From the NCBI RefSeq assembly GCF_055900595.2, contig NZ_JBVWEU010000002.1: 64,000 nt of DNA. One strand, given 5' to 3'. Shown in pieces: positions 13,759 to 28,204 of the stretch; positions within the stretch are counted from its first letter, which is position 1, and each line of letters begins with the position of its first letter. The position numbers were made by a program, and so were the translations under genes. A model generated the notes under the pieces. The model saw only the letters and a program-made list of their open reading frames with translations, was not told where the DNA came from and made no database searches. This DNA is from a plasmid.

Positions 13759-13876
13759 GTTAAACTCCGGTTATTATTTACATGAGAGTATTTATGTCTG
13801 TAATATTCGCGTTTGTGTGATATTAATCAGATCAACCTCATTATTTTGTATGGTTTTTATTACCGTTTTATATGAC

Positions 13877-14224
13877 TTAGCCTGTCATAAGCCCCCTTAT
13901 AAAAAACCACATCACTCCGGACCATACTGATGACAACATAATACAGATAAATATTCTTCTGAACCCGTCGAAGCTCGTAACGTTCGGTAATGAGCCAATA
14001 ACCATTGGAACAACCATTGCTGCGCCCTGATTCATAATTGCACCACACAGAAACCAGAGACTGGCAGTCAGCACATATAAACACGCGATATTAATAACAA
14101 GGAAAACCAGTGAGCTCAGGAGAAACATTTTCCTGTCATTACGCTCAGAAAAGAAATAACCGGCAATAATGACAAATATTAACAGAACAACACCTGTAAA
14201 CAGTTTCAAATAATCTTCACTCAT
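13877..14224 (-). CDS. trbA: TrbA inner-membrane protein (115 aa)
   Basis: Size equals F TrbA. Hydrophobic. Position between traF and traQ. Confidence 0.75.
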   Translation of the reverse strand: MSEDYLKLFTGVVLLIFVIIAGYFFSERNDRKMFLLSSLVFLVINIACLYVLTASLWFLCGAIMNQGAAMVVPMVIGSLPNVTSFDGFRRIFICIMLSSVWSGVMWFFIRGLMTG

Positions 14225-14239
14225 AAATCAAATCCGCGA

Positions 14240-14983
14240 TTAAAAATTGGGTTTAAAATCTTCAGAAACGTTCAGGAATTGTTTTGCCAGGTCGTCCTGC
14301 GAAATAAAGCCGTATGATAACGGGCGAACACTGCCCTGTTTCGGGTCAACCAGCATCATGGCCGGGAAATATTTCACGCCGAGGCGCTGCGCCTGCCCCT
14401 GGTCAGTCCGGGAATCCGGCAACAGCGGATTAATCACACCATCCACGGAAACGGGAATAACACTCAGACCATAGGTATCCCTGAAGCCATTAATGACCTG
14501 CGCCAGCTGCCCGTCGATGGGGTCCTGCCCCCGGTAAAAGAACATGATGCCGTAGTGTTCAGCCAGTTTCGCAATGGCCTGTCGCTGCTGCACCTGGTCT
14601 GCCGCCAGCTGGTTCCGGACCGTGCCGTTGTAATGGCTGTACTGCAGGTTATAGTCCAGTTCGGGATGCGCCAGCATGGCTTTTTTGGCGCTCATGGTGA
14701 AAAGCCCGGCCTGCTGAGTCCAGTAATTCTGCAGCCGGAAATATTTCACAAAATTATCCACGCCGGGATACAGAATGGCTTCGTACAGCGCCCGCTTTGT
14801 TGCCGTCTGCAGTGCGGCCAGTTTCTGCATAATGTCCGGCTCCTGACGGGGGGCTGCAGGTACTGGTTTATTTTCTTTTTCCTTCGGATTTATTTTCTCG
14901 TTATACCACTGCCAGCCTGCATCTTTTCCTGACGCCGGAAAAATAAAGCAGCAGAGTAACAGTGGCAGTAATGCTTTATTCAT
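14240..14983 (-). CDS. traF: TraF pilus assembly protein, thioredoxin-like fold (247 aa from MNKALLPLLL)
   Basis: ORF 14240..15013. Start trimmed to the Met giving the F TraF length and a signal peptide. Confidence 0.9.
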   Translation of the reverse strand: MNKALLPLLLCCFIFPASGKDAGWQWYNEKINPKEKENKPVPAAPRQEPDIMQKLAALQTATKRALYEAILYPGVDNFVKYFRLQNYWTQQAGLFTMSAKKAMLAHPELDYNLQYSHYNGTVRNQLAADQVQQRQAIAKLAEHYGIMFFYRGQDPIDGQLAQVINGFRDTYGLSVIPVSVDGVINPLLPDSRTDQGQAQRLGVKYFPAMMLVDPKQGSVRPLSYGFISQDDLAKQFLNVSEDFKPNF

Positions 14984-15203
14984 CTTCATTCCTTTCATCA
15001 CTTTTTCTTTCATCAGGTTTCTGCAGGTCAGTCAGGGCAGAAAAACAAAAATACAGAATAAACAGGAGCACACCGGAGTAAAAAATAACGAAAGCAGCAG
15101 CAAGTATCTCACCTGCAGTGGTTTCTTTTACCGTATCCCACGACCAGATAATTACCGGGGAAATGACAATCGCTGTAATCAAAAGCCGGATGCGTATTCT
15201 CAT
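14976..15203 (-). CDS. trbE: TrbE small membrane protein, probably 5'-truncated (75 aa versus ~86 aa in F)
   Basis: Hydrophobic small ORF overlapping the traF start. Its ATG directly abuts the IS-type terminal motif at 15203, and an in-frame stop lies 4 codons upstream. Confidence 0.6.
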   Translation of the reverse strand: MRIRIRLLITAIVISPVIIWSWDTVKETTAGEILAAAFVIFYSGVLLFILYFCFSALTDLQKPDERKSDERNEDE

Positions 15204-15290
15204 GAAAGGAGATCACTCAATAACTTCCATCGAGATCGGGTAATAACGGCGTTTTTCAAGGTAGTTGTCGCCTTTTGTAATAAAATTACG

Positions 15291-16196
15291 TTATGCCGCT
15301 TCTTTTTCTGGATTCAGATAAACTGCCTGAATGAGTTCCCAGTCACGCAACTGTTTGCTCCAGCGCTCAGGATGACGTTTGCGAGCTTCGCGATAAACTT
15401 TTTTTCTGGCTTCCAGTATTTGTGCGTCAATTCCGCGATGGCGTTCATCCGGAGTAACATACTTAATACCGCTGTGCTTGTGTTCCAGGTTGTACCATCG
15501 CGTGAACTTGCTTAACCAACTTCTGGCTTCATCTATGGTTCGAAAACCATTCTCTGGCCACCATGGACAATACTTAATCGTCCGGAAGAGCGATTCGGAA
15601 TAAGGGTTATCATTGCTGACCCGGGGACGGGAATAAGAACTTAATACGCCAAGCGCGTACATTTTTGCCAGTAACGTACAACTGCGCATTGGTCCTCCGT
15701 TATCAGAATGAAGCACGAGATTGCGGGATGAACATTTTTCATTCCATACAGCACGTTGAAGCAGTTCTGCCGCATACTGCCCAGATTCTTTCGTAAATAC
15801 TTCGGCAGCAATAATTTTTCGGCTATAAATATCGACGATCATATAGAGATAAAAATGCTGCCCCTTAACCCACGATGGGATATAACTAATATCCCAGCTC
15901 CACACCTGGTTGGGGGCTACAGCTTTGAGTACTTCAGGCCGCTTATATTGGTGTTCACGGGTTCTCCTTGTCAGTTGGTTAGCTGATTTTAATACGCGAT
16001 AAAAAGTTGATTCTGACGCGATATAAACCCCTCTGTCGGCAAGAGTCGGAACAATAATATTCGGAGACAATGATGCAAACTCCGGAGAATTGCATACATC
16101 AAGTATTCTTAATCTTTCTGTTTCTGACAGTTTATTCCCCGGGGTACGCCTTGATGCACCTGGTCTCTGATCTGTATGAACCACACCACCCTGCAT
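15291..16196 (-). CDS. IS3-family transposase OrfB (DDE/rve integrase core, 301 aa)
   Basis: Motifs WSWDISYIP, HSDNGGPM and YSESLFRTIKY (E-x7-K) are typical of IS3-family / retroviral-integrase catalytic domains. Confidence 0.85.
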   Translation of the reverse strand: MQGGVVHTDQRPGASRRTPGNKLSETERLRILDVCNSPEFASLSPNIIVPTLADRGVYIASESTFYRVLKSANQLTRRTREHQYKRPEVLKAVAPNQVWSWDISYIPSWVKGQHFYLYMIVDIYSRKIIAAEVFTKESGQYAAELLQRAVWNEKCSSRNLVLHSDNGGPMRSCTLLAKMYALGVLSSYSRPRVSNDNPYSESLFRTIKYCPWWPENGFRTIDEARSWLSKFTRWYNLEHKHSGIKYVTPDERHRGIDAQILEARKKVYREARKRHPERWSKQLRDWELIQAVYLNPEKEAA

Positions 16197-16315
16197 CCAA
16201 CGTTGAAGTGTTCTGACTGAAATACCAATACACTGGCAGGCTTGTGTTTTTCTCGCTCCTGAACTGACAGCCTCGCTGACCAGATTAATAATCTTCTGCC
16301 GCTCTGGAAGAGGAG

Positions 16316-16861
16316 TCAGCCTTCCTCGCTGTTGTCCCAGAGGGCATTGAACTTTTCCCTTAACATCAAAAGAGCAGCTGCTTCCGCCAGAGCTTTATCT
16401 TTACGGAGAAGTTCTTTTTCCAGTTCCCGTAACTGGGTCTTTGCTTCGCGTAATTCTTTATCAGCACGGCGACTTTCTGCCATTTTCATTTCATGAGCCT
16501 GAATGGATATAGCTCTCCATTCTTTAACTTGCTCAACAAATAACCCCATTCTCCGACAATAATCAGCCAGTTCCATTTCAGATAATGTTGCAGTTTCAAT
16601 TACAACAGAAAATCGTCGCTCCGGTGTCCATTCATTTCCATCGACAGAAGATATTTTTTCATTTTCAGGTAACAGGCCTTGTTGCACCAGTTCAAGTCTC
16701 CATCTTGCTATTACTGAAGGGCTCAGGTCCAGTTTACGAGCAATATGCCGTATGGACCAACTATAAGGTGGTAATAACCAGGTAACACCTTGTTCTTTTA
16801 TATCAATTGGTACTGCATGTGCGGGCATAGTCTCTCTCCTGTGTAAAAATCTAGGCGACAA
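16316..16861 (-). CDS. IS3-family transposase OrfA (HTH DNA-binding, leucine-zipper-like C-terminus)
   Basis: Immediately upstream of orfB in a different frame. The 120-nt gap between orfA stop and the first orfB ATG may indicate a frameshift-fusion arrangement or decay. Confidence 0.7.
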   Translation of the reverse strand: MSPRFLHRRETMPAHAVPIDIKEQGVTWLLPPYSWSIRHIARKLDLSPSVIARWRLELVQQGLLPENEKISSVDGNEWTPERRFSVVIETATLSEMELADYCRRMGLFVEQVKEWRAISIQAHEMKMAESRRADKELREAKTQLRELEKELLRKDKALAEAAALLMLREKFNALWDNSEEG

Positions 16862-17020
16862 CTATGCTGACACAGGGGGATAACATTTGAACAGATCGCT
16901 GAATAACATCGATGGAGATCACTTTTGACTCATTTTGTTATTCAGTGATCTCCATCAATGTTATTGGAACTTCACAGGTGTGTTGATCTGTATCTTTTGC
17001 CATTCCGGTAAAGGATACCT

Positions 17021-18562
17021 ATGCCAACAGTTCCAATTTCTATGAGAAAACTTAAAGAAATTCTTAGGCTTAAATACGGTGTTGGACTCAGCCATCGACA
17101 AATTGGTCGTAGTCTTGCAATCTCCCCTTCCGTTGTATCCAGATATGCTAATCGGGCGGCTCAACTTGGCATAAAGCAGTGGCCCTTACCTACAGGATGG
17201 GATGATACAAAACTAAAACATGCGTTCCTTCAGACCCAGGTTAAGATGAAGAAGCACTCTCTGCCTGACTGGGCTACAGTACACCGGGAACTGCGTAATA
17301 AATGCGTGACGCTGCAGCTACTCTGGGAAGAATACTGTGAGCGTAATCCAGGCGGTTTTTACAGCTATAACCATTACTGCCGGATGTACCGTGAATGGCT
17401 CAAAACCACTTCACCATCAATGCGTCAGGTACATAAAGCTGGCGAAAAACTTTTCGTTGATTACTGTGGACCTACCGTTGGCGTTACCGACCCTGAGACC
17501 GGAGAAATAAGAACTGCTCAGGTCATCGTAGCTGTTCTCGGGGCATCAAGTTACACATGGGCAGAGGCCACCTGGTCTCAGCAGCTTGAAGACTGGGTGA
17601 TGAGTCATGTTCGCTGCTTCCAGTGGTTGGGTGGCGTTCCTGAACTTGTTGTTCCGGACAATCTGAAAAGCGCCACATCCAGGGCATGTAAGTATGATCC
17701 TGACGTTAACCCTACCTACCAGCAGATGCTTGAGCATTATAATGTCGCAGTTTTGCCTGCGCGGCCACGTAAACCGAAAGATAAAGCCAAAGCTGAAGTT
17801 GGCGTTCAGGTTGTTGAACGCTGGATCATGGCCCGAATCAGGCATGAGATCTTCTACAGCCTTGCATCGCTTAATCAGCGCATTCGGGAGTTGCTGGAAA
17901 GACTGAATAACAAAATAATGCAGAAGTTGGGTTATTCACGTGCAGAACTCTTCATCCAGCTTGATAAACCCGCACTGAAGCCTCTTCCTGAAGCCAGTTA
18001 CAGTTACACCCTGGTGAAGAAAGTCAGAGTTCATGCCGATTACCACGTGGAAATCGACAAACATTACTACTCGGTTCCATGTTCGCTGTTAGGCCAGCAA
18101 CTGGAAGCATGGATCTCCGGAGAACTGGTAAGACTCTTCAATCAGGGGCAGGAGGTTGCTGTGCACCCGCGCAAGCGTACTTATGGCTACAGTACCCGCA
18201 ACGAGCACATGCCTGAAGCTCATCGACAGCATGCCACCTGGACGCCAGAGCGTCTTCTGGAATGGGCGGGGCACATAGGCAGTGAAACTCATAGTTATGT
18301 GCTTCATATACTGAACTCTCGTCCACATCCGGAACAAAGCTATCGCTTCTGCCTTGGACTCCTGAACCTTCATAAAAAATACAGTAAAGCCAGACTTAAT
18401 GCAGCATGTGCAAGAGCTCTGAAAACAAAGGTATGGCGTCTGTCAGGTATTAAATCGATCCTGGAAAAAGGTCTGGATAAACAACCTGTTCAGGATCCAA
18501 AACCAGATCTGTTATCCACGATGGAACACGAAAACGTACGCGGCAGTGAGTATTACCACTGA
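17021..18562 (+). CDS. istA: IS21-family transposase IstA (513 aa)
   Basis: N-terminal HTH plus DDE core typical of IstA. Followed 11 nt later by istB. Confidence 0.9.
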   Translation: MPTVPISMRKLKEILRLKYGVGLSHRQIGRSLAISPSVVSRYANRAAQLGIKQWPLPTGWDDTKLKHAFLQTQVKMKKHSLPDWATVHRELRNKCVTLQLLWEEYCERNPGGFYSYNHYCRMYREWLKTTSPSMRQVHKAGEKLFVDYCGPTVGVTDPETGEIRTAQVIVAVLGASSYTWAEATWSQQLEDWVMSHVRCFQWLGGVPELVVPDNLKSATSRACKYDPDVNPTYQQMLEHYNVAVLPARPRKPKDKAKAEVGVQVVERWIMARIRHEIFYSLASLNQRIRELLERLNNKIMQKLGYSRAELFIQLDKPALKPLPEASYSYTLVKKVRVHADYHVEIDKHYYSVPCSLLGQQLEAWISGELVRLFNQGQEVAVHPRKRTYGYSTRNEHMPEAHRQHATWTPERLLEWAGHIGSETHSYVLHILNSRPHPEQSYRFCLGLLNLHKKYSKARLNAACARALKTKVWRLSGIKSILEKGLDKQPVQDPKPDLLSTMEHENVRGSEYYH

Positions 18563-18573
18563 TACGGGATCCA

Positions 18574-19323
18574 ATGATGAATCATCTTTACGAACAACTG
18601 ACCGCACTTAAACTCACCGGCTTCCGTGATGCGCTTAAAAAGCAACTTGCTCAGCCGGGCACATACCAGGAGCTGGGCTTCGAAGAACGCCTGTCATTAC
18701 TGACAGCAGAAGAACTAACCTGCCGTGAAAACAGGAAGGCAGAGCGTCTGATCAAACATGCACGGTTCAGACTTAATGCTGAGTTATCAAAGCTGGATTA
18801 TCGTAACAATAGAGGGCTGGACAGGGCCCTCATCCGTTCACTCAGTCAGGGAAACTGGTTAACCCTGAAACAAAATATTTTACTGACCGGGGCCACCGGC
18901 AGCGGTAAAACGTTCCTGGCATGTGCACTTGGTCATAATGCCTGCCGACAGGGATACAAGGTCTACTATTATCGCCTTAAAGCGCTGATGGAACAGTGCT
19001 ATCAGGGGCATGCTGATGGAAGATACAGCAAACTTTTGACCAGGCTGAATAATAGCGATCTGCTGCTTCTGGATGACTGGGGGCTGGAACCTCTCTCATC
19101 AGAACAGCGTAGCGACCTGCTGGAAATAGTGGATCTGATGTACCAACGAGGCTCAATCATCGTAGTGAGCCAGTTGCCGGTGGAAAACTGGTACAAAATG
19201 ATCGGAGACTCCACACATGCGGATGCCATCCTAGATCGACTGGTTCATGGCAGTATCAAGATCGAACTTAAAGGAGAATCAATGCGGAAAATACAATCTC
19301 CGTTGACCGAAGGAGATCAGTGA
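18574..19323 (+). CDS. istB: IS21-family helper ATPase IstB (249 aa)
   Basis: Walker A LTGATGSGKTF and Walker B LLLLDDWG. DnaC-like AAA+ protein as in IS21 IstB. Confidence 0.9.
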   Translation: MMNHLYEQLTALKLTGFRDALKKQLAQPGTYQELGFEERLSLLTAEELTCRENRKAERLIKHARFRLNAELSKLDYRNNRGLDRALIRSLSQGNWLTLKQNILLTGATGSGKTFLACALGHNACRQGYKVYYYRLKALMEQCYQGHADGRYSKLLTRLNNSDLLLLDDWGLEPLSSEQRSDLLEIVDLMYQRGSIIVVSQLPVENWYKMIGDSTHADAILDRLVHGSIKIELKGESMRKIQSPLTEGDQ

Positions 19324-19482
19324 AGGTAATTTAAAAACGGTTCTGTGAAAGTGACACGAACCGATCTCCATCGATGTTACTCACCGATCTCCTTCACGGT
19401 AATACGCACCGGATAAGAAAATCAATAAAACGGTTCGACGTGAATATGACTTTCATCATTTTCCCCGGTTATTTTCCCTACC

Positions 19483-21291
19483 TTACTGTCCTGCCTGTTT
19501 CAGCTGGTCAGCAATCTGCTCTTTCACTTTCTGCGTCAGAACACCACTGTCCGGGATTTTCTGGTTATTCATCAGGTCTTCGTAGAAGTTAGTGAAATCC
19601 AGTCTGTCGAACTGAATTTTCTGCAGCTCATCAACCGTAATCCCCCGACAGTCAGGATGCTTCGCACTGCCAAAACTGATACGCAGCTGTCCGTTGCGCC
19701 CCTGCTGCTGGACTATCTGCGCCAGCTTCGAATCAAACTGACAGTAACTGCGTTTTTTCTCCAGGCAGACACCCAGCACTTTCTTCGAACAGAACTCTCC
19801 GACACTGACGGTCAGTTTGTTTGATTTTGCTTTAGCCAGGGCTTTTTCATCACTGCTGCATTTGGCCAGCCCGATGTCCTGTCCCCAGCCGCTGTCCTTA
19901 CAGCAGTTGCTGTATCCGGCTGCAGCCTTCTTACAAAATTTCGCCTGACCGGTGAAAGCACGGACATCCACCCCGTTCAGCGCCGCAACATCCTTACCTG
20001 CTGCGGCCAGTGCCGCCAGCTGAGAAACGGCTTCGGCAAAATCATTACTCTTCCCGCTCTGAGCCTTATCGCATTCGCCATCGAGACAGAAGACGTCTCC
20101 CCCACAGACCATCACTTTCCCGGATGTTTTTGACTCACAGGAGTACGTGGCATATTCATGCAGACAGGCACCTTCTTCGGAGTAAAAGGCACACTGGTGT
20201 GACACCAGGGTACAGGCTGGATTGTCGGTGTAGGTCTGACAGGTTCCCTTGTCTGCTGACTGTGTGACATACGTGTCCCGGTATGCCCAGCAGCTCTGGT
20301 ACATGCTGTATGACTGACCGTCTTTCACCAGCGTCCTGTTCCCGCCAGCCTCCGTACATTCTGTTTTTGTCAGTTTCCCCAGCTCCTTGCTGAACGGGCA
20401 GCTTTCAGACCAGACAACATACGGGGTGTACGAGGCTTTTTTTACCCTGACAACCAGACGCAGCTTCATTGCCGTATGACGTTTGAATTTTGTATTCCCG
20501 ACCCGGACGGGGTGAGATGACGTAAAAGCAACACCGGCAGTCAGTGTTTTCTGTACTGGTGTAAATGAGGCATCTGCTGAGTATTTGGCATTCCAGCTCA
20601 GTGGGGTTCCCAGTACTGTAATTGTCATAGGTACACTCTTCTGCAGGTAAGTACGACTCCAGCTGTAATGCGCATCGACAATTTCACCGGTAACGGGAGA
20701 GGTAATGGAGACAACATACTGACCATTCACTTCACGTGCAGGTAGCTGACTCATTTCATACTCCAGCGTCCGGGTTTCCCATGTGGTACTCCCCTGCAGC
20801 TCCATACGGGCAGTTCGTGTGCAGTACTGCTCCACCTGTAAATCCCGCTCACAGGTGTAATTCGTGTATTCACTCCGGCTAATCTCCTGCGCACTGCACT
20901 GCTGCCCGGTGTTTCCCACAATGCTGTCAGCCCGGTTCACCACATCCCTGCCGGTCTGGATAAACGGTGCATCCGGTGAAAGAATGTCTTTCGGCTTGTT
21001 CATGAATGACTCTGTGATGGTTTTTCCGGTTTCACCGGTCGCCCATTCCGTGGTGCCGTCATTTTTCAGGCCGCCATCCCCGCCGGCAGTCACGCCACCG
21101 TAGTATTTTGTCTCGTCCGGATTCGCGTTATAGCCGGGGATACTCTCCTGTGGCTTAAAGCCCTGAATACTGCTGCTTCCCTGTCCTTTGATCTGGTGAG
21201 CAAAATCAGAGCCGGCCCGGTAATCACTGTTGCTGTCAGCCTGTGCCATGCCGGCAACCAGAGCCAGTATCAGAGGTAAAATACGTTTCAT
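19483..21291 (-). CDS. traN: TraN outer-membrane mating-pair stabilisation protein (602 aa, Cys-rich)
   Basis: Size equals F TraN. Signal peptide, many conserved cysteines, synteny with trbC. Confidence 0.93.
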   Translation of the reverse strand: MKRILPLILALVAGMAQADSNSDYRAGSDFAHQIKGQGSSSIQGFKPQESIPGYNANPDETKYYGGVTAGGDGGLKNDGTTEWATGETGKTITESFMNKPKDILSPDAPFIQTGRDVVNRADSIVGNTGQQCSAQEISRSEYTNYTCERDLQVEQYCTRTARMELQGSTTWETRTLEYEMSQLPAREVNGQYVVSITSPVTGEIVDAHYSWSRTYLQKSVPMTITVLGTPLSWNAKYSADASFTPVQKTLTAGVAFTSSHPVRVGNTKFKRHTAMKLRLVVRVKKASYTPYVVWSESCPFSKELGKLTKTECTEAGGNRTLVKDGQSYSMYQSCWAYRDTYVTQSADKGTCQTYTDNPACTLVSHQCAFYSEEGACLHEYATYSCESKTSGKVMVCGGDVFCLDGECDKAQSGKSNDFAEAVSQLAALAAAGKDVAALNGVDVRAFTGQAKFCKKAAAGYSNCCKDSGWGQDIGLAKCSSDEKALAKAKSNKLTVSVGEFCSKKVLGVCLEKKRSYCQFDSKLAQIVQQQGRNGQLRISFGSAKHPDCRGITVDELQKIQFDRLDFTNFYEDLMNNQKIPDSGVLTQKVKEQIADQLKQAGQ

Positions 21292-23559: not shown

Positions 23560-23939
23560 TCCGCCCTCATTCGCCGGGCGATATCCTGCTGGATTTCCCG
23601 GGTGATATCCGGAGCCCCCTGTACCACGGCAGGCGACACCAGAATGACCGCGTGGTGTTTCTGCTGCCATGCCTGCAGGCTGGCTTCCAGTGCCGTGTTA
23701 AAACGCGCTGAAAGGGCTTTTGACTGTACTTCTGACAGTTGTTTCTGACTGGCGCTGTCAAAAAACGCATCCACGGTCTGTTTCATGTTGAAGGCGGCAG
23801 TCACCGGTGCGTTCAGTCTGACAATGCCGTAACTGATGGCTGCGTTCAGTAACACCATTGCCAGGCATCCCGGCACCGTCCACCACCAGTGGCTGCGTCG
23901 ACGGGCTGTAACGTCAGTCGTTTTTTGCGTTGTGGTCAT
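23553..23939 (-). CDS. trbI: TrbI inner-membrane protein (128 aa)
   Basis: Size equals F TrbI. Position between traC and traW. Confidence 0.85.
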   Translation of the reverse strand: MTTTQKTTDVTARRRSHWWWTVPGCLAMVLLNAAISYGIVRLNAPVTAAFNMKQTVDAFFDSASQKQLSEVQSKALSARFNTALEASLQAWQQKHHAVILVSPAVVQGAPDITREIQQDIARRMRAEP

Positions 23940-26566
23940 GCAACACTCCTGTATTTCTCATGTTCTTCCAGCCAGGCTTCCAGCGAAGCCATCTCCGGCC
24001 CTGACTTCTTCCACGCCAGCTGCCACACCGCCTCATGAATACTCAGCCCCTCTTTACGTTTCTGCTGCACAAACTCAAAATCCGGGCCGTCAGAGCTGTA
24101 CATGGCGCGGCTTAACGGGTCCACAAACAGGCGGTGCCAGGAGGAATGGTTTTCCACCTGCAGCAGGAAGGAACTGAACCACTGATCTTTGGCCGCACCG
24201 AACTTACCAATCATGTCACGCTGCAGTGGCAGGAACTGGTCCGGATACAGCTGGTTGTATTTCGCGAACTCCTTCGCACTCTGTTTGAGGATAATTTTGT
24301 AGGAGGAGTTACCCCATGCTGCACGGGCCGCACTGGAGGCCTTGTCAGAGTCAAAGTCGACGATGTTCTGTGTGATGGTGATATAGGCACCGGTATGACG
24401 GCGGGCGGTACGGTAGCCTTTCTCAATAAATTCACCGACCTTGTGATTTTTGAAGTCCAGCAGACGCCAGCCTTCATCAATGACGTTCAGTTTCTTGAGG
24501 TTACGCGGCGTGCGGTACATCCGGTTCTCAATGTAAATGATAAGGCTGAACATCACCGCAACCAGCAGGGATGGACGGTCTTCCAGTCCGCCCAGCTCCA
24601 GCACCACCATTTTCGCATCATCCCGCAGGGACGGCTCATCGGAGTTGAAATACTGGCCATAAGTGCCGTTAGCAGTGTACTGGTCAAGCAGCACAATCAT
24701 TTCGTCCAGACGGCTGCGGATGGTCGGTGATTCGGCATACTGCTCGCTGTCACTGGCGTTTTTCAGGAAATCCACCACGTCATCAATACGTGCCCTGTTC
24801 TCTTTGGCCAGCCATGATGCCCTGACTGCCTGCAGCAGCAGACCTTCATGCACTTCATCCAGGTTACCGTTGGGGCTGGCCATCACCGACAGCTGGTCGC
24901 GGACACGCTCCGCTGACTGGTCAATATCGGTGATGTTCGCAAACGGGTTAAAGCGCAGGGTTTCACCGTCCAGATATACGCCCCCCATGTTCTCACACAG
25001 GGACTTGTAGCCATCCCCCATGTCGAACACCACGGCAAAGCCCCCGGAGTCCAGCACGCTGCGGATAAGTGGCTGTATCAGCCCGGTTTTACCGGCCCCG
25101 GAGGTGCCACAGACCGCCATGTTATAGTTGGTGTTATTCATCCCCCGGAAGAAAATATCGATAAACGCCAGCTGGTTACGGTAGGTGGGTGCCAGCAGAC
25201 CTGCCGGTGTCAGGGGGTTATCCGCCACTAACGGCATCAGGTTGGCCACATTAAAGCTCTCTGCGCGCTGTACCACTCCGGCCTCTTTCAGCTGTTTAAA
25301 CAACCCTTTCCCGGCCATAAAGGGCAGACAGGTCAGGAAATTGCGCATGTGGTTAAAGCGCGGTGAAATCAGCTCAAAACCGTTTTTACGGAAGCTGTTC
25401 AGGATGTCCTGCTCCACTTCCAGTGCCGTTTCATTATTGTCCTTGCAGAAGGCTGTGATGTTGAGGAAGTAGGACACGACAGAGGACTGACCGGAGCCCA
25501 GCCGCTGACGCAGTTCCCCCCACTCCTTCGCCTCTTTCTCCACGGACGGAAACCATTTGGCATAGGAGGTCTTCGACTTTTTCTCCAGGTCCATGTACTT
25601 CAGGTTGGCTTCGCTGTGGGTTTTCACCTGGTCTTCCACCACCAGAGTCAGCGTCAGGATGAACGGACAGGAGATGGACAGTTCCGGGTTCAGCAGGTTG
25701 CTGTAGTTGTCGGCCATGTTCCACAGGAAGGCGATTTCCGGGTTACGGGCCAGATGGAAATTCAGGATGCGGGCCGTGCTGTTCCTGCCGTTCTCACGCA
25801 GGCCCAGCGTCAGGTAATCAGCCCGGACTTTCAGGTCAAAACTGTCCTCCACACACTGATAATTCAGATCAGAATACGGGTCCAGCTGACGTCTTTTCGG
25901 GTACAGGGAGTCCGGGTTATGGTTAATCATCTCCCCGACAATATCGATAAAGGCCTGTGCATCCACCGTCTGTGTGGTGATACTGGCCCCCTGTAACGAC
26001 GCCCGGATGATTTTCACCAGGTTTTCCATTTCCAGAATGTCGGCCCGGCTTTTTTTCTTCGAAGGAGAACAGTACGAGATAAACACCCGGTAATGGCGCA
26101 GGGTCAGGGGCAGATTCATCCCCTCCGGCAGCGGAAACTGTGTCGCTGCCGCTTTCATATAATAGGCCCGGGTAATGGCGTTAAACCGTTCAGCCTGTTC
26201 ACCTGACCAGGAGAACTCACGCAGCCCGTATTCAATCCTGTCACCAACCAGCTGACTGGACATCAGATGGATACACAACGGAATACCGCGCGGCAGTTTG
26301 GTGCGCAGCATGTGATCGAGGGCCTCCACAATGGACTCATTCGCCCCATTGATGGGAATGGCTTCCAGCATAAAGCCCATCGTGGTGTCATTCATGAACA
26401 GACCGGATTCCTGGTTGTAATCACGATACGGCAGCAGACGGCTGAACTGCGGGAAGCTCATTTCGCCCAGCACTTCATTGGCCTTTGCTGATTCGTCAGG
26501 CAGTTTCAGTGCTGTGACGAGGGAGTTAACCGCCTGAGTGACGGCCTCAAGTGGGTTATTACTCAT
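23936..26566 (-). CDS. traC: TraC (VirB4-like) pilus assembly ATPase (876 aa)
   Basis: Size (F TraC is ~875 aa). Walker A GTSGAGKTG. Synteny. Confidence 0.95.
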   Translation of the reverse strand: MSNNPLEAVTQAVNSLVTALKLPDESAKANEVLGEMSFPQFSRLLPYRDYNQESGLFMNDTTMGFMLEAIPINGANESIVEALDHMLRTKLPRGIPLCIHLMSSQLVGDRIEYGLREFSWSGEQAERFNAITRAYYMKAAATQFPLPEGMNLPLTLRHYRVFISYCSPSKKKSRADILEMENLVKIIRASLQGASITTQTVDAQAFIDIVGEMINHNPDSLYPKRRQLDPYSDLNYQCVEDSFDLKVRADYLTLGLRENGRNSTARILNFHLARNPEIAFLWNMADNYSNLLNPELSISCPFILTLTLVVEDQVKTHSEANLKYMDLEKKSKTSYAKWFPSVEKEAKEWGELRQRLGSGQSSVVSYFLNITAFCKDNNETALEVEQDILNSFRKNGFELISPRFNHMRNFLTCLPFMAGKGLFKQLKEAGVVQRAESFNVANLMPLVADNPLTPAGLLAPTYRNQLAFIDIFFRGMNNTNYNMAVCGTSGAGKTGLIQPLIRSVLDSGGFAVVFDMGDGYKSLCENMGGVYLDGETLRFNPFANITDIDQSAERVRDQLSVMASPNGNLDEVHEGLLLQAVRASWLAKENRARIDDVVDFLKNASDSEQYAESPTIRSRLDEMIVLLDQYTANGTYGQYFNSDEPSLRDDAKMVVLELGGLEDRPSLLVAVMFSLIIYIENRMYRTPRNLKKLNVIDEGWRLLDFKNHKVGEFIEKGYRTARRHTGAYITITQNIVDFDSDKASSAARAAWGNSSYKIILKQSAKEFAKYNQLYPDQFLPLQRDMIGKFGAAKDQWFSSFLLQVENHSSWHRLFVDPLSRAMYSSDGPDFEFVQQKRKEGLSIHEAVWQLAWKKSGPEMASLEAWLEEHEKYRSVA

Positions 26567-28070: not shown

Positions 28071-28204
28071 GGAATATTCCTCCCGACATGTTCTGACACG
28101 CTACCGCCCATCCCTTTTCACGCACAGGGCACTCGTTTTACAGGCAGATTTTGAATACAGAAAGCCCGCCGGCATTGCCGGCTGATATACAACTTCAGGG
28201 CCAG

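Follow-up and report, generated by a model that had tools for sequence, protein, structure and literature searches.

ISEc12 carrying a nested IS3-family element interrupts trbE in the tra operon of an F-like plasmid

The distal part of the tra operon described here is interrupted, within trbE, by a single insertion of the IS21-family element ISEc12, which itself houses a nested IS3-type element, and it is likely that the consequence for the transfer genes downstream is a partial rather than a full polarity. The insertion lies in a stretch of 64,000 nucleotides of plasmid DNA (the window), and the foreign DNA totals 4218 bp (15191-19408). The features at the site are:

14240-14983, minus strand: traF, intact; first essential gene downstream of the insertion
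14976-15203, minus strand: hybrid trbE ORF, 75 codons (MRIR from the ISEc12 left end, in frame with trbE codons 15-85)
15186-15190, no strand: left target duplication of ISEc12, CCGGA; the healed sequence matches plasmids with intact trbE
15191-19408, plus strand: ISEc12 (IS21 family), 2581 bp after removal of the nested element, recognised from annotated reference copies
15191-15246, plus strand: ISEc12 left terminal segment, 56 bp, severed by the nested element, with two GAGATC-type repeat units
17021-18562, plus strand: istA, 513 aa, ISEc12 transposase, antisense to tra (WP_001298859.1 in reference copies)
18574-19323, plus strand: istB, helper ATPase of ISEc12, by NCBIfam profile match
19409-19413: right target duplication of ISEc12, CCGGA, within the trbE 5' fragment
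19409-19459, minus strand: trbE 5' fragment, first 16 codons, from comparison with the intact trbE of a reference plasmid (L001) and translation
19483-21291, minus strand: traN, 602 aa, intact, last gene ahead of the insertion; ORF and traN annotation in matching plasmids

ISEc12 is bounded by ends of the 5'-TG...CA-3' type (TGCGTATT...AATACGCA), both of which contain GAGATC-type repeat units, and differs from six reference copies at only 1-2 positions over 2581 bp (including a T to C change at position 9). Its two genes match the corresponding profiles, istA with 310 bits (NCBIfam NF033546, cut-off 160) and istB with 270 bits (NF038214, cut-off 200). A 5-bp target duplication is also present at six other ISEc12 copies examined (once 7-bp among the copies in tra operons), and has been described for this element in the literature (PMC10711316). 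When both elements and one copy of CCGGA were cut out in silico, the healed traF-trbE-traN region (2378 bp) was 100% identical to that of at least 10 plasmids with an intact trbE, annotated as traN, TrbE and traF. The gene order traN-trbE-traF is thereby restored and trbE becomes an ORF of 85/86 codons (MMKVIF...NEDE), so that, as read from the sequence, one transposition event has placed ISEc12 between codons 16 and 17 of trbE and duplicated CCGGA.

The two parts of trbE are found on either side of the foreign DNA. The start codons (ATGATG, 19459-19454) adjoin traN, whose stop is at 19483, and the 5' fragment runs into the ISEc12 right end until a stop codon is reached (MMKVIFTSNRFIDFLIRCVLP*), giving a 21-codon stub. 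The 74 bp at 19409-19482 are native plasmid DNA (16 trbE codons plus the traN-trbE spacer). A preliminary description of this region had counted them as IS DNA, while missing 13 bp of the element at the other end (it placed the IS span at 15204-19482), and had proposed that the 5' end of trbE was replaced; by sequence, this end is displaced across the IS, neither replaced nor deleted. The remainder of the gene is read as the hybrid ORF, which falls 10-11 codons short of the 85/86 aa of intact TrbE, in agreement with the shortening of about 11 codons first noticed. This ORF does start at what had been taken as the IS boundary, but its ATG (15203-15201, minus strand) and four codons belong to the ISEc12 left terminal segment; no clear ribosome-binding site was seen upstream of it.

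The IS3-type element is inserted 56 bp inward of the left tip of ISEc12, within the left terminal repeats, and consists of:

15247-16879, minus strand: nested IS3-family element, 1633 bp, genes co-directional with the tra operon
16316-16828, minus strand: orfA
15291-16196, minus strand: orfB, frame open from 16394, -1 relative to orfA
15243-15246 and 16880-16883: 4-bp duplication ATAA

The two reading frames overlap at 16394-16316, where an A-rich motif (GGGAAAAG) is found and a frameshift is predicted, and an identical copy of the element is annotated as 'IS3 family transposase, programmed frameshift'. The catalytic domain of OrfB matches the DDE integrase core (Pfam rve, 6e-16; rve_3, 7e-12), and the element scores 173 bits against NF033516 (cut-off 160). 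Its ends are of the form C...G (CCCCCTGTG... and ...AAAAACGCCG) instead of the IS3-typical 5'-TG...CA-3', and its 26-bp ends match well only at the inner 11 bp, features by which it is classed as an atypical member of the IS3 family. The boundaries were set from 18 other copies and 113 distant ones; since the base preceding GGCG is a C in 112 of the 113 distant copies, this C belongs to the element, which fixes the boundary and reduces a candidate 5-bp duplication (ATAAC) to the 4-bp ATAA. The nested element may have entered an ISEc12 already resident in trbE, or the two may have arrived together as a composite; neither intermediate was present in the databases searched.

The preliminary description was right that IS3-family orfA/orfB (15291-16828, minus) and IS21-family istA/istB (17021-18562 and 18574-19323, plus) are present, and that about 4.2 kb of such DNA separates traN from the remainder of trbE and from traF onward, although the site is inside trbE and not in the gap between the two genes. 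It understood them as two separate insertions side by side in the traN-trbE gap, with the 5' end of trbE replaced, as the position of both gene pairs between traN and a shortened trbE ORF could suggest. Such an arrangement is now hardly credible: only ISEc12 ends touch plasmid DNA, the IS3-type element is flanked on both sides by ISEc12 and has its own ATAA duplication, and the 5' codons of trbE survive at 19409-19459. The identity of the healed sequence to intact plasmids, together with the alignment of ISEc12 across the nested element, refutes it. An inverted repeat (15147-15163 / 19460-19476) that had been considered as extended IS ends is native sequence of the trbE region, found in uninterrupted plasmids too. 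The likeness between the right tip of ISEc12 and its target (GTAAT...CCGGA) was taken as chance, and is the reason why matches in the junction search begin at query base 65.

The exact junction was found in none of 72,556 plasmids and 5,426 E. coli genomes searched, whereas reference plasmids have an intact trbE without any IS, so the splitting of the operon stands. Given that all the remaining tra frames are undamaged and that healing yields the exact sequence of sister plasmids, the insertion is judged to be recent, an ordinary, newly seen allele that marks a lineage-specific event in the plasmid. The distal tra ORFs are all intact, with traI open for 1589 codons as far as the window edge, and over its backbone the plasmid has 99.9% identity with AP026455.1/NZ_CP128971.1, by which the host plasmid is a close relative of AP026455.1. 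It is a large, F-like plasmid with colicin- and fimbria-related genes aboard.

ISEc12 is also present in other F-like tra operons, between the traN stop and the trbE start in pR14-S7K7-1 (NZ_CP107148.1), at the 3' end of trbE in pE308_IMP6 (NZ_AP022353.1), and also in p14408_1, pRIVM_C039205_2 and pMTY2830_IncF. As in the window, the 2581-bp element of these plasmids (with 1-2 differences) lies in the distal tra stretch, in or beside non-essential genes, and is bordered by duplications of 5 bp (once 7 bp), but at five other positions, without the codon-16 junction and without the nested IS3-type element. The six tra-operon insertions (window, L001 and L012-L015) all have istAB antisense to tra; this apparent orientation bias is an ascertainment artefact, because the search joins only pieces of the same strand and plasmids with the same orientation rank top. 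The literature searched for ISEc12 together with trbE, and for transfer data on the sister plasmids, yielded nothing usable. A copy in tssM of E. coli ST131 clade C likewise disrupts a gene, with a 5-bp duplication, and serves as a lineage marker (PMC10711316); unlike the copy in the window, it lies in a chromosomal type VI secretion gene, lacks a nested element and raises no question of operon polarity.

The insertion moves traF through traI 4.2 kb further from the P_Y promoter, and traF and traH are essential (PMC5102898), so that polarity on the distal genes, raised from the beginning, is a legitimate concern. RfaH is an activator of the F tra operon and keeps NusG out (PMC7593976), and a predicted loading site for RfaH lies ahead of the insertion:

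28097-28108, minus strand (tra sense): ops element, GGCGGTAGCGTG, located just after traV and 8.7 kb ahead of the insertion

It matches the 12-nt ops sequence GGCGGTAGNNTG exactly (2 matches versus 0.06 expected). Since trbE itself, as Maneewannakul et al. are said to have shown in 1992, is dispensable for F transfer, a phenotype, if any, would arise from polarity. Transcripts from P_Y would have to traverse some 2.5 kb of istB/istA RNA, antisense and untranslated, before reaching IS3 orfA/orfB, which are co-directional with them. A partial, Rho-type polarity would be expected rather than a full block, because the tra-sense strand has no strong intrinsic terminator, because RNA polymerase should already carry RfaH from ops, and because the IS3 genes could be translated on read-through RNA. 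Retention of RfaH 8.7 kb beyond ops, and over untranslated RNA, is assumed here. Expression of the distal genes, and transfer with it, would thus probably be reduced and not abolished, and the upstream ops site could blunt the polarity.

The sequence of the IS DNA gives some room to a stronger effect, in which the insertion would be fully polar, silencing traF, traQ, traH, traG and later genes and abolishing self-transfer, the plasmid being then a dead-end variant that decays or is kept by vertical inheritance or mobilisation. The 4.2 kb of foreign DNA, the untranslated antisense RNA of about 2.5 kb, with several C-rich, G-poor stretches that are candidate Rho loading sites, and an excess of terminator-like hairpins (12 versus 4.9 expected, both strands) are compatible with it, as is the fact that the junction is in no other record searched, in keeping with a lack of spread. 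The hairpins are, however, short (5-7 pairs) with poor T tails, those in the tra sense are weak, and a sequence scan found no strong terminator on the tra strand of the IS DNA. The ops/RfaH system upstream, the presence of ISEc12 at five other distal tra sites in otherwise complete F-like plasmids (one of these junctions being shared by three plasmids of different sizes) and the integrity of all the distal tra genes also argue against complete silencing, which we regard as unlikely.

An even less probable alternative is that traF onward is driven independently of P_Y by an IS-borne promoter, either that of the IS3-type transposase or a hybrid one at the outward end. IS2 has reportedly served as a source of promoters for the tra operon of pED208 and for ampC, and resident promoters of IS3-family elements are typically weak. 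The IS3-type genes point in the same direction as the tra genes, the stretch from orfB (15291) to the trbE remainder has no terminator-like site, and a TTGAAA hexamer is located at a distance of 6 bp from the element's outward tip, but there is no fitting -10 at 16-18 bp from it. A -35 hexamer facing outward is frequent at the right ends of IS3- and IS21-family elements, and transposase genes are documented to be co-transcribed with genes downstream of them (PMC9330008), which would favour such a promoter. Against it, the best sigma-70-like candidate on the tra-sense strand of 14900-19600 does not rise above the shuffled background (8.2 versus a mean best score of 11.7 in shuffled sequence, in a scan whose reach does not extend to weak or non-sigma-70 promoters), and a consensus promoter scan of that strand found none. 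With no promoter predicted, which would also fit full polarity, nothing obvious would rescue expression should read-through fail.

In pED208, IS2 is reportedly found upstream of the tra operon. In F, the IS3 copy in finO is a natural insertion that alters tra expression (PMC7690428). As in these two cases, an IS within an F-like transfer region is expected to change tra expression in the window, but those insertions raise transfer (because a repressor is lost or a promoter gained), whereas the one in the window is in the middle of the operon, without a predicted promoter, and is expected to lower distal expression. Partial polarity of this kind may weaken the downstream transfer genes and lower self-transfer of the plasmid, which is relevant to predicting spread from sequence, as typing by gene content would still class the plasmid as conjugative. 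The insertion also offers a natural test of how well RfaH/ops antitermination guards a 30-kb operon against IS polarity.

The location of the nested element points to a preference of its own. The 18 copies inspected in E. coli and relatives are all inside IS21-type ends, and include relatives of 76-78% identity within the ends of further IS21-like elements. In E. coli the element appears to specialise on IS21-type ends, which would account for the two ISs of the window sitting together. Insertion occurs there directly after the repeat unit GAGATC(A/G)(C/G)(T/G)NA(A/G)TAA, presumably an IstA-binding site. Simple insertions with 4-bp duplications are found at two different ISEc12 repeat units, in the window (ATAA) and in a second copy (L005, GTAA), and two more such sites are known as junctions, so that four different units are used overall. 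Many copies are chimeras devoid of istAB (an IS21 end fragment, the IS3-type element and another IS21 end fragment), and at unrelated genomic sites these are bordered by target duplications of 5-6 bp in the IS21 style. Two types of chimera are each present at two different sites, which suggests that IstA/IstB can move them in trans, giving the IS3-type element two routes of spread.

It is tentatively proposed, as a possibility somewhat short of an even chance, that the E. coli/Salmonella clade of this element inserts specifically in IS21-family terminal repeat units, being in effect an IS parasite. Such targeting does not extend to the whole IS family, since the flanks of copies from Vibrio, Pseudomonas, Marinomonas and other genera are diverse, and no description of an IS targeting IS21-family terminal repeats was found in the literature searched. 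If true, this would be a further example of an IS that specialises on another IS, with chimeras that look mobilisable. For annotation, the IS21-end pieces around the IS3-type element can easily be taken for independent events, as they were in the first reading.

Other site-specific ISs are IS1397/ISKpn1, in REP/BIME repeats, and IS4321/IS5075, in the inverted repeats of the Tn21 family. Like them, the nested element inserts at one fixed point within a short repeat, although its target is the terminal repeats of IS21-family elements. IS1353 (IS3 family), inserted in IS1326 (IS21 family) in integron In2 of Tn21 (plasmid R100), was considered as a relative and rejected, as no similarity was detected by blastn or tblastn; the two cases also differ in their ends and target sequence, and the R100 pair is outside any tra operon. 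The topology is nevertheless the same, with an IS3-family element in the left terminal region of an IS21-family one, upstream of and divergent from istA, and with istA/istB intact.

The foreign IS DNA seen in the preliminary description, with IS3-family orfA/orfB and IS21-family istA/istB pairs, is real. It does not lie between traN and trbE as described there: it lies inside trbE, after codon 16, in a tra operon that runs on the minus strand of the window with its genes in the order known from F. The tra frames on both sides of the insertion region are open, including that of traI, which stays open for 1589 codons until the window ends. The layout is as follows.

Tra genes and insertion region
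Minus strand, traM and traJ, continuing to traC
23936-26566, minus strand, traC, followed by traW, traU and trbC
19483-21291, minus strand, traN
19409-19459, minus strand, first 16 codons of trbE, kept beside traN
15191-19408, ISEc12 (IS21 family, istA/istB)
15247-16879, minus strand, IS3-type element inside ISEc12 (1633 bp, orfA/orfB pair, co-directional with the tra operon)
14976-15203, 75-codon ORF that includes the remainder of trbE, which restarts at 15190

In a megablast search of region 14700-19800 against 72,556 plasmids, ISEc12 accounted for about half of the query and matched the window as two pieces. Comparison with six uninterrupted copies (L001, L002, L012-L015) placed its ends at 15191 (TGCGTATT...) and 19408 (...AATACGCA), with a length of 2581 bp once the inner insert is removed, and IstA and IstB score well above the cut-offs of the IS21 transposase and helper ATPase models. 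The terminal repeat unit is GAGATCRSKNARTAA. The sole change common to all six comparisons is T to C at position 9 (window 15199), in the terminal inverted repeat, where the window has C and every reference copy T; some copies also vary at position 1827. ISEc12 is bordered on either side by a copy of the plasmid sequence CCGGA (15186-15190 and 19409-19413), and the nested element by an ATAA duplication. A 5-bp duplication also borders the other ISEc12 copies compared, in line with the literature (PMC10711316).

Intact trbE reads MKVIFTSNRFIDFLIRLLITAIV... in L001, one of the reference loci, and in thousands of plasmids. In the window, its first 16 codons continue into the right end of ISEc12, where they reach a stop (MMKVIFTSNRFIDFLIRCVLP*). 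The ATG and four codons (MRIR) of the 75-codon ORF are supplied by the left end of ISEc12, and the ORF continues in frame from trbE codon 15 onward; no obvious ribosome-binding site was seen for it. The 5' end of trbE, thought earlier to have been replaced, is therefore present. When the IS and one CCGGA copy were removed in silico (13800-15190 joined to 19414-20400), the healed sequence of 2378 bp matched at least 10 plasmids with traN, TrbE, traF and trbA annotations from end to end at 100% identity, which identifies a clean, simple insertion within trbE. Outside the tra genes, the window matches two of these intact-trbE plasmids, AP026455.1 and NZ_CP128971.1, at 99.9% identity, which makes the insertion recent in their lineage. 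The target site (GTAATCAAAAGCCGGA; 19394-19413 against intact trbE) resembles the adjoining right tip of ISEc12 (GTAATACGCA plus CCGGA), probably by chance.

The ISEc12-trbE junction of the window was found in none of the 72,556 plasmids and 5,426 complete E. coli genomes searched. Five other independent ISEc12 positions were found in the distal tra operon of otherwise complete F-like plasmids (L001, L012-L015): the traN-trbE spacer, the 3' end of trbE, after traF, trbJ/trbF and trbF/traH, all in or beside non-essential genes. Insertions of this kind are ordinary in IncF plasmids, and the one in the window is a new allele. These positions are compatible with tolerance of distal tra insertions, which is not proof of transfer proficiency. 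The orientation shared by these five copies proved to be an artefact of the match ranking of the search.

The gene trbE is said to have been found dispensable for F transfer by Maneewannakul et al. 1992. Both traF and traH are counted among the essential genes (PMC5102898). Given both points, the functional question is one of polarity, reasonably raised in the preliminary description. A transcript from P_Y, the distal tra promoter, has to traverse about 2.5 kb of antisense istB/istA that contains no long ORF; the co-directional IS3 orfA/orfB follows. On the tra-sense strand across the IS, terminator-like hairpins are weak only (5-7 pairs, poor T tails), and a few C-rich, G-poor windows are candidate Rho-loading sites. 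The best sigma-70-like promoter on this strand scored 8.2 against a shuffled mean of 11.7, and a second scan found none; the IS3-type element has a TTGAAA hexamer close to its outward tip but no -10 at a workable distance from it. The sequence thus offers no evidence of a rescue promoter within the IS. The tra-sense strand also has an exact ops element (GGCGGTAGCGTG), at 28097-28108, between traV and the insertion. Such a site recruits RfaH, which activates the F tra operon and keeps NusG off the polymerase (PMC7593976); once loaded there, RfaH would lessen Rho-type polarity across the IS. Our best estimate is that distal tra expression would be lowered, not abolished; a full block is rather unlikely, and rescue driven by the IS still less likely. 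A second exact ops element (58961-58972) is found in a fimbrial usher/chaperone-type cluster whose genes share its minus-strand orientation; the usher ORF spans 59079-61649, and 0.06 exact matches per window are expected by chance.

Both IS pairs of the preliminary description stand, as parts of one nested structure: the IS3-type element splits ISEc12 at a point 56 bp in from the left tip and is flanked by ISEc12 on either side. Its boundaries were set from 18 other copies and 113 distant copies in other genera; because the base preceding GGCGTTTTT is C in 112 of the latter, the duplication is read as the 4-bp ATAA (15243-15246, 16880-16883). In keeping with the IS3 family, OrfB scores above threshold in the NCBIfam IS3 model and has rve integrase-core domains; orfB lies in the -1 frame relative to orfA, and the two frames overlap by 79 nt. 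Another copy, 100% identical, carries the annotation "IS3 family transposase, programmed frameshift". The ends are atypical for the IS3 family, being C...G instead of the usual TG...CA, with only the inner 11 bp well matched. IS1353 in IS1326 (Tn21, R100) is likewise an IS3-family element in an IS21-family left end, divergent from istA, although it has no detectable similarity to the present element.

A side finding, which would be more unusual than the trbE insertion, is an apparent specialisation of this element on IS21-type ends. Such terminal sequence surrounds it in all 18 other loci inspected, representing at least 12 independent contexts in E. coli, E. fergusonii, E. albertii and Salmonella (L003-L011, L016-L019, L141-L144; relatives of 76-78% identity included). 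The insertion point directly follows the repeat unit GAGATC(A/G)(C/G)(T/G)NA(A/G)TAA, and four different ISEc12 repeat units have been used. Two simple insertions into full-length ISEc12, each with its own 4-bp duplication, lie after different units, GAGATCGGGTAATAA at the left end in the window and GGAGATCGGTGAGTAA at the right end in L005; two further units, ...GGAGATCACTCAATAA and ...GGAGATCACTGAATAA, are seen as junctions. The pattern indicates that insertion is sequence-specific and takes place after the terminal repeat unit of ISEc12. In distant relatives from Vibrio, Pseudomonas, Marinomonas, Alteromonas, Photobacterium and others (L021-L140, from a genome contig scan), the 24-nt end GGCGTTTTTCAAGGYAGTTGTCGC is conserved despite OrfB identities of 53-59%; their flanks vary, showing a mild preference for T/A at 3-4 bases ahead of the element, and the habit therefore seems to belong to the enterobacterial clade.

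Many copies are istAB-less chimeras. In these, the IS3-type element has 10-57 bp of one IS21-type end on one side and 31-79 bp of a different end on the other, and duplications of 5-6 bp border the whole at unrelated sites.

Duplications flanking istAB-less chimeras
L003, ATCGG
L004, AGTGC
L006, GCCAG
L007, TTAAG
L009, TAAAG
L016, CATGG
L017, CTGTGG
L019, TTCATG

Two of the chimera types have each been found at a pair of different sites (L003 and L009; L006 and L007), which fits movement through the IS21-type ends and suggests mobilisation in trans by IstA/IstB. The recurrence may also reflect repeated formation in place. In the E. coli VTB97379v chromosome (L143), the element lies between two inverted ISEc12 left ends joined at the same repeat unit, with no outer duplication around them, and looks like a rearrangement between copies. 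In the F-like plasmid of E. coli CH4797 (L144), an ISEc12-end/IS3 chimera lies near traQ in the distal tra region, where over 40 bp of the adjoining plasmid sequence stands as a direct repeat on either side.
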